IMG/VR virus record: IMGVR_UViG_2713896798_000016
Strand: one strand, 5' to 3'
DNA from: a virus
Taxonomy: Duplodnaviria > Heunggongvirae > Uroviricota > Caudoviricetes
DNA length: 28,031 bases
In this document: positions 21,001 to 28,031 of the stretch, in pieces
How positions within the stretch are numbered: position 1 is the first letter of the stretch
Layout of the letters: every line of letters starts with the position of its first letter
Position numbers: made by a program

Positions 21001-24000
21001 GGTGTATTCATGAGGACGGAAGCCCACGGACAGCCCCCTGACCAGCCCGGTCTTAATGGCCGCCCAGGCCTCATCCAGCCTGGCAGCCAGTTGCGATGGC
21101 ATATCCGGCACGGGCTTCGCCAGTGTTGCCGTGATTTCCAGCCCTTCGCTGACCCGGCGCACCGTACACTGCCCCACCGGGCGGGAATGGTCATGCTGCC
21201 AGAGAAACGGGATCGCACTGCCAAACTCCGCGCCCTCCGGCTCCAGGATGTCACCATCCCGATCCGGAGAAGGCGTTGACGCAATCCCGGTGATCACCCG
21301 CTCATCCTCACTGAAGGATTTCACCGTCAGCAGGGAGCAGGCCCGTTTAAGAGTCACATCAGCCTCCTGAAAATAAAAAAACCGCCGCAGCGGTCCATGA
21401 TGGTTACAGGGTGAACAGGGTTATATGAAAAAAACCGCATATTCTTTCTTTTTCGGCTCCGGATTCAGGGACATCAGGGATACCGCATTGAAGAGCGCCA
21501 TCAGCGGGTCAATTTTCCCCCGTCCGCTGGCCTGTTTGGTAATAAGGATGGCGTTACCTTTCGGCTCCACCCGGGCATTGCCAACGCACCAGGCCATCAG
21601 TGGCTGACCACCATGCACCAGCACTCCCTCAGCCAGTTTGCGCTCGGTGGTTTTTATGGCCCCGCCCAGCTTCCAGCCCTGGCTTATCCCCACAACAATT
21701 CCGTCGGGGATCCCGGCTTCCGCCAGTGAATCCAGAATCTGCCCCACACCTGACGGGTCAATACCGATATGCTCCAGTAACTCAGCCTCATGAATACGAC
21801 GCACATACTCCGCCACTTCCGCCGTGTCATCCCCGACCCGACGGACAATCGTCATGTCTCCACAGGCCACAAAATCCTGAAACCGGGATGCCTCACTCTT
21901 CCGTCTGACCACCGCGGTTTCATGCGCCCAGGCATGGCCCCAGCCCAGCCATTCGCGGGTTTCCCTGTCACGGCCAATCACGTACATTCCCAGCAGATCA
22001 TCCAGGCCCCCGCCGTCAATCCCCACCGTCACCACATCAGCGCGCTGCAGGATATCGTCCAGGCTGACGCGCCTGCCCTGCTGCTCCCAGAAATCCGCAC
22101 CCGTCCAGCGGTCAGAACGCAGGGCAAGACCAATTTCCACATTGGCATGTTTTGACATGAAGCCACGAAATGCTTCCTCACCAGCCTCCCGGGCTTTACG
22201 GTACTCCCGGTACAGAAAAGCCTCATCCACCGAATAACCGAGATTCGGATTGACCATGGCGAGGTTTTCCATCAGCAGGTGAGCCCCGCTTTCCACCATT
22301 TCAGGAGGGTGTTCAAATATCACCGGCAGAAAGTGCGGATCATGAATTTTGCCGTCACGGACATCCCGGGCGTACTGCAGTTTCTGTCTGAACACCCCGG
22401 CTGGCGGCTCATTCGACTGGGTGGTTGTGTACACCACAAATCCTTCCGGACGGGAGGCAAGCCCGCCGATGGCTTCACGTAACATGTCTTCCGCTTTGTA
22501 CTGCTTGCCAAACAGCCACAGTTCATCAATCAGTGTCCCCACGGACTTGATACCGGACACCGTATTCGGATCGGCTGCCACCACCTTAAGGGTAGTGTCC
22601 GTCACCCTGTGGGTGATGGTCCGGATATGTGTCTGCACCTGGCAGAGGTCATCCAGATCATCGTCACGTCTGACCATATCCCGCGCAGGATTAAAGGCGT
22701 TAGCCGCCACCTCCACAGTCGGGGCCAGAATGGTGTAGCCCGCCGCCTGCCGCCAGTTCAGTAACAGCGCCGTCATCATGATCCCGGCAGCCAGCGTGGA
22801 CTTGCTGTTTTTTTTCGGGATAAGGATAAAAACTTCCTTGATATGGCGAACACCGGTCTGCGCATCGTAGGAGCCAAACAGGGCCGCCACCAGGTCAAAC
22901 ACCCACTGTGCGCAGGACTCCCCGAACGTCGGGCTGCCCGGTGCATCCACAATCCGCAGTTGTTTAAAAATCGCCAGTGCATGTGCAGCCTGATCCGGAT
23001 AAATCGGGGCCGGAATAATCGACAGCCCCTTTTTCAGGCGCTCTGCCCAGTCCGGGCAGGCCGTGCTCCACACAGGTATCATCCGTTGCCCTCATTATCA
23101 TTATTCACCACCAGTCGGGGTGGTGGTGGCACCGCAAAACGGTTAGCCGCTTTTTTCGCCGCGTCACCTTTTGCCGATTTTTTACCGGCATCCCCTTTTT
23201 TGTGGTGCGTGAACTGCGCCAGCTTATAAGCCGCATCCAGCGCCAGCCTGGGGTCGGTATTAATGTTCTCCACCAGAAGACGCCCCATCGCTTTCACCGG
23301 ATCGGGAAGACCGTCCTCCATATACTCAATACCAGGAGATATCACCACGGGCGGTGGCATCTCCGGATTTGTTTCGTCCGGCTGTGGTATTGCAGCCGCC
23401 TCACGGCGACGGGGTTTATCCTCCTGCTCTGATTTTTTCTGCCGGTAAACAGGAACCTCATCCACCTCCACCGTCTCGCACTGTTTACGGGCTATAAACG
23501 CAAGCACCTCCGGATCTTTTGCCAGCTGCGAGCCTTTAACCCTGGCTGTCTTCGCCGAATAACCGGCGGCAATGGCTGACGCTGTTTTGTTTTTCCCGGA
23601 CATGAGCGCCAGCGCAAATTTTCGTTTTTGCGTTGTCAGCACAGCCTCCTCCCGGGTCCAGAACGCACTCAGCCGGGTATGGTTCAGCCCATTTTTCCCG
23701 GCGTCTCATGCCGCAAATGTTAACTGCTGCCTGGTTAACATTTGCTGAAAAAGCCTGTTAACATTTTTTCCACGCAAGTAAGCGACTCGTCAGAACCGTA
23801 TTGATATTTACTGAGAGCTCAGATCAACTTTCCAGGGCAACAGATCGCGTACCCGGTTTGCCGGCCAGTCCTGGATATGTTCAATGACGTAACGCAGCCA
23901 CTTTTCTGGCTCCACATTGTTCAGACGGCATGTGCCGATCAGCGAGTACAACACCGCCGCATGTTCACCACCGCTGTCGGAACCCGCGAACATCCAGTTT

Positions 24001-27000: not shown

Positions 27001-28031
27001 CGAAAGCCATGACCACAAACCTCTACTTTTGTATCATACCCCATGACCCGTAACGCACTATTTACCGTATTCTCACTCATGGGTTTGTGCGAATCGTGAT
27101 CACCAATAAATATCAAGTCATGGGCCCCATAAAACTGTTTTATCTGCTTTAAAATTGCAAGAGCTTGCGTTGAAAGAGGCACTAGATGCGTTGTACGCAT
27201 TTTTGAGCCTCTATGGGAATGTTTCACTCCAGGAATAGGCTCCCGCTCCGGTGGGATAGTCCATATAGACGCTTCGAAATCGATCTCTGACCAACGAGCA
27301 AAACGCAGCTCACTGGACCGAATAAAGATCAGCAAAGTGAGTTCTATCGCCCATCGGGTTAGCGGCCTACCAGTATAGCTATCTATTTTTGTAAGCAACT
27401 CAGGGATGCGCTTTAATTCAAGCGCGGGACGATGTTGTCGATTACAGGAAGCAACCGCCCCAGCCATCTCTTGTGCCGGGTTATAATCAATTAACCCACT
27501 TTGCACTGCATAGCGCATGATGGCTGTAGTGCGCTGCTGAAGACGAGCGGCCACTTCAAGACGTCCAGACATTTCTACGGCCTTAATAGGTGCTAATAAA
27601 TCTCGAGTTTTTAACTCAGCGATATTACGTTCACCAAGCGCTGCAAAAAGATTATCTTCAAGACTTTTTAGCACACGATGGGCGTGATCTTCAGACCACT
27701 TTTTATTGGTGCCATGCCACTCAATCGCGACTTCTTTAAAGGTTCGTGCTTTACTCTGTTCAACCTTATCATTTTTCTTTTTGTCTCCCGGATCGACGCC
27801 ATTCGCAAGCAGGTTACGCGCCTCGTCACGACGTACTCTGGCATCCGCTAGTGTGATTTCAGGATAAACCCCAAGTGCCAGCATTTTTTGCTTTCCCTCA
27901 TAACGGTACTGCAAACGCCAGTACTTAGAACCATTTGGATGGACAAGCAGATGCATACCGCCACCATCAGTCAGCTTATATTGCTTATCCGTTGGCTTGG
28001 CTGCTCTGACTTTGATATCTGTTAATGCCAT

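Follow-up and report, generated by a model that had tools for sequence, protein, structure and literature searches.

Integrases of the P4 type are found in leuX-associated islands of Escherichia coli, for example intB of KpLE2 in strain K-12 and that of PAI II in strain 536, and prophages of E. coli O157 are known to undergo IS629-driven degradation. ISCro1, an IS66-family element, received its name in Citrobacter rodentium ICC168; with 24 copies it is the most expanded insertion sequence (IS) of that strain, and large IS-mediated inversions are documented in the species (PMC3072379).

Here we describe a novel joint made by ISCro1 in a 28,031-nt stretch of DNA (hereafter the window), with the packaging end of a prophage on its left and, on its right, the integrase-proximal end of a leuX island, which is backed by conserved chromosome. 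The window corresponds to bases 3-28033 of contig LFZH01000010.1 of E. coli IH53473, a clinical STEC/ETEC hybrid, Shiga-toxin E. coli of the O101 lineage, whose assembly is an early PacBio RS/Celera draft.

Prophage arm left of the joint

The prophage is lambdoid, with an HK97-type head and a lambda-type tail. Those of its features that bear on the joint are:

9460..11991, plus strand: ISEc23-like member of the IS66 family, inserted in the tape-measure gene and flanked by a perfect 8-bp duplication, CTTTTTCC
21421..23082, minus strand: terL, large terminase subunit, 553 aa (Pfam TerL_ATPase and TerL_nuclease), the last large late-operon gene before the joint
23079..23642, minus strand: terS, small terminase subunit, complete, 187 aa (Pfam Terminase_2)
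23643..23777, no strand: 135 bp of phage DNA upstream of terS, delimited by alignment with the uninterrupted phage
23770..23777, no strand: left flanking 8-mer CCACGCAA, phage DNA, with no match to the right 8-mer

The nearest complete genome is that of SCPM-O-B-7615 (NZ_CP144926.1, hereafter 7615), in which the prophage lies uninterrupted in dusA at ~4.707–4.770 Mb. Over ~21 kb the two copies have 4 mismatches and 6 single-base gaps; between J and the point 135 bp upstream of terS they share 99.9–100% identity and gene order, and both have the same inserts (sodC, ant and arc) and the same frameshift in the portal gene. Around the packaging genes, positions 21400-23777 are 100% identical to 7615 and to five other complete genomes, and terS, at 564 bp, matches the length annotated in relatives. 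The 135 bp upstream of terS are the probable terminase-binding, cos-proximal region, and contain all three GTTAACAT motifs of the window (0.53 expected). Phage homology stops exactly at 23777, at a point where the uninterrupted phage aligns as ...CCACGCAA followed directly by CAAACTGAAT....

In contrast to the window, the 7615 prophage has a tape measure without an IS and no ISCro1 upstream of terS, and runs on into the HNH endonuclease gene, the lysis genes, nanS-p, tRNAs and Q. Since terS in the uninterrupted copy is followed by HNH, Rz, lysozyme, holin, nanS-p, tRNAs and Q, these genes are missing at the corresponding position in IH53473, which bears out the first-pass annotation in its remark that lysis genes and Q were to be expected upstream of terS and were absent. 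The late genes are thus not contiguous with lysis, Q, early and integration modules, as they would be in a complete lambdoid prophage. Being split from the HNH, lysis, Q and early region, with its tape measure broken by an IS and its portal gene frameshifted, the IH53473 prophage is unable to make particles.

In 7615 itself, the leuX integrase gene is cut by IS1, panB is joined to yjgN by IS5, and a truncated ISCro1 adjoins a full one; in another relative, SCPM-O-B-9504, the ytfK..leuX segment is inverted.

A complete ISCro1 element without target-site duplication

Phage DNA gives way to a complete IS with the following parts and right-hand flank:

23778..26476, minus strand: ISCro1 (IS66 family), complete, 2,699 bp, 135 bp upstream of terS, defined by its domains and by its ends in comparison with nine other copies
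23808-25379, minus strand: tnpC of ISCro1
25399-25746, minus strand: tnpB of ISCro1
25746-26423, minus strand: tnpA of ISCro1
26477..26484, no strand: right flanking 8-mer GCTTGTAC, leuX-island DNA, with no match to the left 8-mer

The first reading of the sequence had placed a 2.7-kb IS66-family element here, cutting off the prophage, and had taken it for a different member from that in the tape measure, in inverted orientation. Both points hold: the prophage stops exactly at the IS, and ISCro1 (minus strand) and the ISEc23-like element (plus strand) have TnpC proteins only 51% identical. All three transposition genes are present, with matches far over the curated cut-offs (Pfam DDE_Tnp_IS66, E = 2.5e-103, and TnpB_IS66, 4.7e-40; NCBIfam IS66_access_TnpA, 4e-88), which places the element in the IS66 family. 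Its imperfect terminal inverted repeats (left GTAAGCGACTCG..., right ...GAGCCGGTTAC) begin GTAAGCG... and GTAACCG..., with the 5'-GTAA of IS66 and ISCro1, and agree at 15 of the first 22 positions (GTAAGCGACTCG... vs GTAACCGGCTCA...).

In a comparison with copies named in RefSeq, the element is 100% identical to copies annotated there as ISCro1, and its TnpB and TnpC are identical to RefSeq "ISCro1 family" proteins. From other copies it differs at 0–3 positions; it is identical to the copy at 713–734 kb on the same contig and to one copy in 7615, and the three copies read within IH53473 show 0–1 differences. Among the matches listed, three copies with this TnpA allele lie on LFZH01000010.1, at 15.7, 415 and 713 kb.

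The window copy has no 8-bp target-site duplication (CCACGCAA vs GCTTGTAC), as a simple insertion would have, whereas perfect 8-bp duplications flank at least six other ISCro1 insertions, both other copies on the contig included. The missing duplication is no argument against membership of IS66 or ISCro1; it means that the site is not that of a simple insertion. The ISEc23-like element, by its duplication, is a simple insertion. Because the other ISCro1 copies and the ISEc23-like element have perfect duplications and the window copy has none, we read the latter, from its flanks, as a bridge between two unrelated sites. Each flank is what half of a standard insertion leaves, phage DNA ending in ...CCACGCAA and leuX-island homology starting with GCTTGTAC, and non-matching 8-mers that each derive from a different site are the pattern of IS recombination. 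The suspicion voiced at first reading that an IS had a part in the event was therefore well founded: the joint is IS-mediated, with a copy devoid of a target-site duplication.

Queries of 160 bp across both joints of the element found no covering record in 5,426 complete E. coli genomes, and so neither parental insertion was recovered; an exact look-up of the 66-aa open reading frame that spans the right joint found no record either. Such absence would also be expected of an assembly chimera, in which two separate simple ISCro1 insertions had their wrong flanks joined across the identical 2.7-kb repeat, Celera/PacBio RS putting the 24-kb phage arm onto the start of the 1.26-Mb contig. The position of the joint, 24–26 kb from the contig end, is favourable to this explanation, as is the fact that ISCro1 copies in the genome are identical or one base apart; thin coverage is suggested, moreover, by 5 single-base gaps against 7615 in the first 9.5 kb of the contig. 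On the other side, the genome paper of IH53473 reports contigs consistent with the whole-genome map, a check that is weak here because the phage arm holds only four NcoI sites and the optical map is barely a test of it. The same paper states that corrected reads <3.5 kb were thrown out, so that IS-spanning reads should exist, and in the assembly the duplications around both other ISCro1 copies of the contig are intact. We consider a chimera quite unlikely.

The integrase belongs to a leuX island

Right of the IS, the window contains:

26477..26765, no strand: AT-rich spacer, 289 bp, 37.7% GC, native DNA 3' of the integrase gene in leuX islands
26743..26762, minus strand: GC-rich hairpin with an 8-bp stem and a 4-nt loop, 3 nt past the integrase stop codon
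26766..28031, minus strand: complete P4-type tyrosine integrase (421 aa), that of the leuX island, with a sequence identical to WP_001218934.1

The stretch of ~290 bp of AT-rich DNA and the P4-type integrase seen at first reading are thus both real. The integrase start codon is formed by the final three bases of the window, and the protein carries Arm-DNA-bind_3 (PF13356, DUF4102), Phage_int_M (PF22022) and Phage_integrase (PF00589) domains, all above cut-off. It aligns with P4 Int over 410 aa (59% identity, 75% positives, 506 bits), including the motifs RSSELRFARW, HGFRT and RAAYIH, which we take to be the predicted catalytic-residue motifs. The hairpin proposed as the integrase terminator is present; the terminator role is only plausible, its T-run being weak and terminator-like sites in the region being no more numerous than in shuffled sequence, and we list it as a candidate.

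The source contig was examined to 8.4 kb past the window end and at its two other ISCro1 copies. A tRNA gene and an att repeat had been suggested as things to look for right of the window. tRNA-Leu(CAA) leuX, whose 3' end holds the 20-bp P4 att core, lies 186 bp past the integrase start codon and is followed by ahr, yjgR, lptG, lptF, pepA, holC and valS. Lysis and early genes directly beyond the integrase, which would have indicated a simple uninterrupted prophage, are not there; the genes just named occupy the place. Because leuX, ahr, yjgR, lptGF, pepA and valS come after it, the integrase belongs to the leuX island and not to the prophage. At least 1,504 complete E. coli genomes carry a leuX-island integrase region that matches window positions 26476-28031 at 99.9–100% identity, the match beginning at 26476. 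In all ten neighbourhoods listed for the exact integrase, none of them on the source contig, the gene stands in an ordinary leuX context. Assignment of the integrase to the prophage was rejected on this flanking identity, and also on the dusA prophage of 7615, which has its own, different integrase.

The island is not intact. A second P4 att core was not found in the window with up to 3 mismatches allowed, and island DNA ends 289 bp after the integrase gene, in place of the integrase, cargo and second direct repeat of a whole tRNA-associated island. The proposal that the prophage remnant sits inside or next to an integrase-bearing island was accordingly right as to the island and its adjacency; the prophage did not come to lie inside it by integration and was joined to it secondarily.

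Origin of the joint

Beyond the observed identity and ends of every element, the missing duplication and the right-hand chromosomal context, we infer that the IH53473 prophage sits in dusA as in 7615, that the event was an inversion and that a reciprocal joint exists. The layout in 7615 is leuX(+)-int(+)-...cycA...dnaB-dusA-phage int-tail fibres-J->terS-HNH..., with the dusA prophage ~290 kb from leuX and terS pointing away from the leuX integrase. With terS and the integrase so oriented, an inversion can give the joint and a deletion cannot: for terS to meet the integrase with both reading as they do in the window, the stretch between them must invert. On balance it is probable that the joint is one end of an IS-driven inversion of ~290 kb between the site upstream of terS and the leuX-island site.

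One ISCro1 copy would have lain in the region that separates terS from the HNH gene, 135 bp upstream of the former, and a second, in inverted orientation, 289 bp past the 3' end of the leuX integrase gene; by homologous recombination the two would have inverted the ~290 kb between them. One-step intramolecular transposition of one copy into the other site would have the same outcome. Because the parental insertions were not found, either two lineage-private insertions, or one insertion and an intramolecular event, have to be assumed. Each end of the inverted segment would carry a hybrid IS copy, with an 8-mer from one original site on one side and an 8-mer from the other site on the other; the window would hold one of these ends, and the predicted reciprocal joint would read ...CAGTTTGTTGCGTGG-ISCro1-GTACAAGCGACTGTATTAC.... 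The inversion would part terS and all head and tail genes from the HNH gene, the lysis genes, Q and the early region, and would leave the leuX integrase intact with the island cargo lost on the joint side. The first-pass annotation had called the prophage a late-gene-only remnant that had lost its regulatory and lysis half. This part of it we do not uphold, as the 7615 layout permits inversion and not deletion; the lysis and early half was probably relocated, not lost, and would be expected elsewhere in the genome, next to the remaining leuX island.

Several points weigh against an inversion. Neither a parental insertion nor either joint occurs in the 5,426 complete E. coli genomes, and a ~290-kb flip within one replichore would leave dnaB, groESL, the rpsF operon and others running counter to the direction of replication, with a fitness cost. 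The integration site is taken from a relative, since the left end of LFZH01000010.1 falls within gene J and the site in IH53473 lies outside the contig. The reciprocal joint was also sought on the same contig and rejected there: the two same-allele ISCro1 copies outside the window, among the matches listed, have perfect duplications. In favour of the inversion, the gene yafV lies ~400 kb further along the contig; in SCPM-O-B-9504 the distance from the integrase gene to aspV is 424 kb, a spacing of the same order and in the same orientation as that from int to yafV in IH53473. A search with the yafV-fadE flank returned an ordinary region.

Were the starting layout a different one, with the ancestral prophage on the island side of leuX or elsewhere than in dusA, an IS-mediated deletion or other rearrangement could account for the joint, direct ISCro1 repeats recombining, or one copy causing an adjacent deletion, with removal of the lysis and early half and the island cargo. 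The missing duplication fits this equally well, similar late regions do occur at several chromosomal sites in other strains, and the contig, beginning in J, does not reveal the IH53473 integration site. The prophage arm, however, hardly differs from the dusA prophage of 7615, the closest complete genome. A deletion that started from the 7615 layout would bring int next to HNH instead of terS, and ~290 kb with essential genes such as dnaB, ssb and groESL would go with it. Nor does any of the ten leuX neighbourhoods listed for the exact integrase have a lambdoid prophage beside it. We consider such a deletion or other rearrangement unlikely.

A tandem duplication is very improbable. Unequal exchange between IS copies would have doubled the leuX-to-terS segment, with the window as the new joint, as might be expected with the prophage at its 7615 position and the IS copies in direct orientation on sister chromosomes. 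The way in which terS and int are oriented to each other in 7615 does not suit this, and the contig continues for 1.26 Mb without a return to the prophage. The model was rejected on the tape-measure::IS fusion, a protein specific to this prophage copy that was recorded once, on one contig.

Three independent insertions fall within a few hundred bp: that of the window, one 41 bp away in Ec-U3, and one inside terS in 2013C-4225. They might hint that in this prophage family ISCro1 prefers the terS/cos-proximal region with its GTTAACAT cluster, and that IS66-family elements repeatedly disable packaging and seed rearrangements at one and the same place in independent strains, an idea that we put forward as speculation and think doubtful.

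Comparison with known systems

The joint is of little importance outside strain IH53473, where it means that the prophage cannot be a functional phage and that the leuX integrase no longer delimits an island. It portrays multi-copy ISCro1 as reshaping the chromosome of the O101 lineage, a lineage visibly prone to IS-driven rearrangement. For annotation, the integrase should not be assigned to the prophage, and behind a call of "incomplete prophage" there may be a split prophage, with its second half ~290 kb away. Were the joint instead an assembly error, it would serve as a warning on early PacBio drafts at 2.7-kb repeats.

With ISCro1 elsewhere, the window element shares the tnpA-tnpB-tnpC layout, the DDE_Tnp_IS66 domain, the GTAAGCG/GTAACCG ends and the length of 2,699 bp; it differs from other copies in lacking their 8-bp duplication, and its TnpA has S39 where two commoner alleles have G39. 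The integrase resembles P4 Int and the leuX-island integrases in its three-domain layout, its 59% identity to the former, its adjacency to leuX and the 20-bp att core. Unlike in satellite phage P4, no P4 genes lie by it, and unlike in leuX islands, ISCro1 and an arm of a lambdoid prophage have taken the place of the cargo on its 3' side. The pair of sites (upstream of terS and in the leuX island) with the IS involved was not found elsewhere among the 5,426 genomes, and in this the locus differs from the inversions of attaching/effacing pathogens such as C. rodentium (PMC3072379). With those it has in common an identical multi-copy IS in prophages and islands, a rearranged chromosome and disabled prophages; an IS-driven chromosome inversion is a well-known kind of event and ordinary biology.

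A recombinant ISCro1 joint between prophage and leuX island

The layout read in the first-pass annotation, with terS followed by an IS66-family element, an AT-rich stretch of ~290 bp and a P4-type integrase, was confirmed in full, as was its view that the element in the tape-measure gene is a different IS66-family member:

9460-11991, + strand: ISEc23-like element in the tape-measure gene, TnpC only 51% identical to that of ISCro1
21421-23082, - strand: terL, end of the late operon
23079-23642, - strand: terS, complete (187 aa), last late-operon gene before ISCro1
23778-26476, tnpA, tnpB and tnpC on - strand: ISCro1, 2,699 bp
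26477-26765: spacer, 289 bp, 37.7% GC
26743-26762: hairpin between ISCro1 and the integrase
26766-28031, - strand: leuX-island integrase, complete (421 aa; WP_001218934.1)

The element beside terS, whose IS66-family matches lie far over the cut-off, is 100% identical to copies named ISCro1 by RefSeq (its TnpA is a slightly unusual allele, S39) and begins 135 bp upstream of the terS start codon; its ends at the joint were set by comparison with nine other copies. The usual outcome of ISCro1 insertion is an 8-bp target duplication. Perfect duplications flank the copies at comparison loci L007, L008, L009, L024, L025 and L028/L029, as well as those on the same contig at ~723 kb (GGATATAT) and ~425 kb (AACTATTG), and the ISEc23-like element has CTTTTTCC on each side. 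At the joint the flanks differ: the left one is CCACGCAA and the right one GCTTGTAC, each being the exact remainder of half a normal insertion at its own site. This ISCro1 is therefore a recombinant joint bridging two unrelated insertion sites, not an insertion. Another prophage copy, at L023 (CP010238.1, 443-464 kb), lies without target duplication (ATTATTTG versus ATTACTGT) between two lysis-cassette copies, and looks like a second example of such a joint.

Source contig and the possibility of misassembly

The ORF fusing the tape-measure N-terminus to the IS is unique to the window and was found in one contig on record, LFZH01000010.1 (1,261,313 bp; GCA_001264175.1), of which the window is the very beginning (window coordinate = contig coordinate minus 2). 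The strain, E. coli IH53473, is a patient-derived STEC/ETEC hybrid (O101, H33 in silico), assembled from PacBio RS reads with Celera Assembler into 10 contigs, with an NcoI optical map as a check (PMC4551483). The contig starts within gene J (window 1-2994), which is truncated at that point, shows single-base gaps relative to SCPM-O-B-7615 (hereafter 7615, the nearest complete genome) and has a longest ORF of 866 aa; in 7615, J is a single gene of 1,158 aa. These gaps probably reflect consensus errors where coverage at the end of the contig is thin, not true frameshifts.

A false join of the flanks across ISCro1 by the assembler would be favoured by the near-uniformity of the ISCro1 copies in IH53473 (identical or one base apart), by the position of the joint <26 kb from the contig end, by five single-base gaps in the first 9.5 kb that break J, and by the presence of only four NcoI sites in the phage arm. 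However, the assembly agreed with the optical map according to its authors (PMC4551483), and we consider such an error unlikely, though not negligible.

The island side is native

From 26476 to its end, the window is 99.9-100% identical to a single locus carried by at least 1,504 complete E. coli genomes, where the neighbours of WP_001218934.1 are tRNA-Leu, ahr and yjgR. The protein carries Arm-DNA-bind_3, Phage_int_M and Phage_integrase domains, and P4 Int is 59% identical to it over 410 aa. A tRNA gene, which the first-pass annotation proposed to look for right of the window, is present on the source contig (L032): tRNA-Leu(CAA) lies 186 bp beyond the int start codon and has the 20-bp P4 att core as its 3' end; ahr, yjgR, lptG, lptF, pepA, holC and valS follow. 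Because these features adjoin it, the integrase is identified as that of the leuX island, at its usual place in the chromosome. The window itself contains no other copy of the att core. The spacer is the native 3' flank of the integrase; in other strains, island DNA carries on where ISCro1 starts here.

Against the K-12 gene order, the contig descends from leuX to valS, ascends from yafV to yafL by 415-436 kb and ascends from rhsD to gcl at 713-734 kb. SCPM-O-B-9504 (9504) has the same pattern, its ytfK-to-leuX segment, integrase and island remnant being inverted relative to the flanks, and IH53473 apparently has this older inversion as well. The distances are also similar (int to aspV, 424 kb in 9504; int to yafV, ~400 kb in IH53473). 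What lies right of the joint is therefore native for the lineage, and the phage arm alone is new.

The inverted segment in 9504 spans ytfK, valS, leuX, the integrase and the island remnant (L036, L037, L035, L039; 4.385-4.449 Mb); cycA adjoins the remnant, in which IS1, IS5 and IS100 fragments abound.

The prophage arm and its missing neighbours

Window 1-9459 and 11992-23777 differ from the 7615 prophage by 4 mismatches and 6 single-base gaps over ~21 kb. That prophage, integrated at dusA with its own integrase, which differs from the leuX-island integrase, runs on without interruption past ...CCACGCAA, first through further GTTAACAT motifs and then through an HNH endonuclease, ylcI, Rz, an antirepressor-like gene, lysozyme, holin, nanS-p, three tRNAs and Q. 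It thereby bears out the expectation of lysis genes and Q upstream of terS; in the window, the HNH, lysis and Q genes are missing from this position. Near-identity to the 7615 prophage suggests dusA as the site of the IH53473 prophage.

All three GTTAACAT motifs in the window fall within 60 bp left of ISCro1 (23717-23764; chance expectation, 0.53), and another two come next in the uninterrupted phage (L006 16378-16480). The cluster is likely a terminase-binding or cos-proximal array split by ISCro1. The tail-gene block holds cargo that is conserved in the 7615 prophage: sodC (Cu/Zn superoxide dismutase; 3146-3658, +) separates tail genes I and J, and K is separated from L by a P22-type antirepressor gene and a pair of Arc-family genes (5219-6814). 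The portal/protease region (16624-19208) consists of two ORFs (407 and 454 aa) and contains a 162-bp tandem repeat (3.6 copies, 95% identity; 17093-17682). Because this region is labelled 'frameshifted' in two independent complete genomes too, it could be a genuine or a programmed frameshift.

A probable inversion rather than loss

The 7615 chromosome runs leuX(+), leuX integrase(+), (IS1), cycA ... groESL ... pheU island ... ssb, uvrA, dnaB, dusA, and on through the phage integrase, tail fibres, J to terS, HNH ... Q ... early genes, the dusA 5' fragment and zur. The leuX integrase and the terS-upstream site are ~290 kb apart, with terS directed away from the integrase. In the window the order is J to terS, IS, integrase(-), leuX(-), which, given the 7615 layout, would be reachable only by inverting the entire interval between both sites. 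Two ISCro1 copies, inverted relative to each other as recombination needs, would flip the intervening ~290 kb, and the predicted reciprocal joint would run from the HNH side through ISCro1 to the island remnant and cycA. Among 5,426 complete E. coli genomes, none contains either junction of the window's ISCro1 with its flanking DNA, so both parental insertions are absent from that set.

A deletion from the 7615 layout would fuse the integrase to HNH and lose essential genes. For a duplication joint, the orientation is unsuitable, and the unique tape-measure::IS fusion is present just once.

The first-pass annotation had seen a late-gene-only remnant, possibly inside or beside an integrase-bearing island, its lysis and regulatory half possibly lost through the IS. 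An IS-mediated joint beside an integrase-bearing tRNA island holds, given the mismatched 8-mers and the adjoining leuX; the loss is probably wrong, the lysis/early half having more likely been relocated by inversion.

In 7615, IS1 has taken away the entire spacer along with the final codons of the leuX integrase, IS5 connects panB with a fragment of yjgN, and a 1,013-bp partial ISCro1 is abutted by a full one beside the tail-fibre genes (L040 16449-18387 and 3601-5389; L033 2380-6061; L034 44844-46630). The dusA prophage of 7615 is itself rearranged, because its integrase lies at the end with the tail fibres and xis/exo at the opposite one.

Comparison with known elements and events

Related prophages carry ISCro1 near the same genes: an independent copy lies inside terS in strain 2013C-4225 (L001 8080-11350), another 41 bp off the window's site in Ec-U3 (hits H91/H4), and in B1_2 (L005 5724-10415) ISCro1 links a tail-fibre fragment to terL. 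Possible explanations are an insertion hot spot or merely a high IS load in such prophages.

P4-type integrases next to leuX are a textbook feature, and so is the decay that IS elements cause in the lambdoid prophages of Shiga-toxin E. coli. In Citrobacter rodentium, ISCro1 is the most expanded IS, and large inversions between identical repeats, IS copies included, were shown by experiment (PMC3072379). All components of the joint are known elements, and events of this type are known too; the strain-specific part is the pair of sites only.
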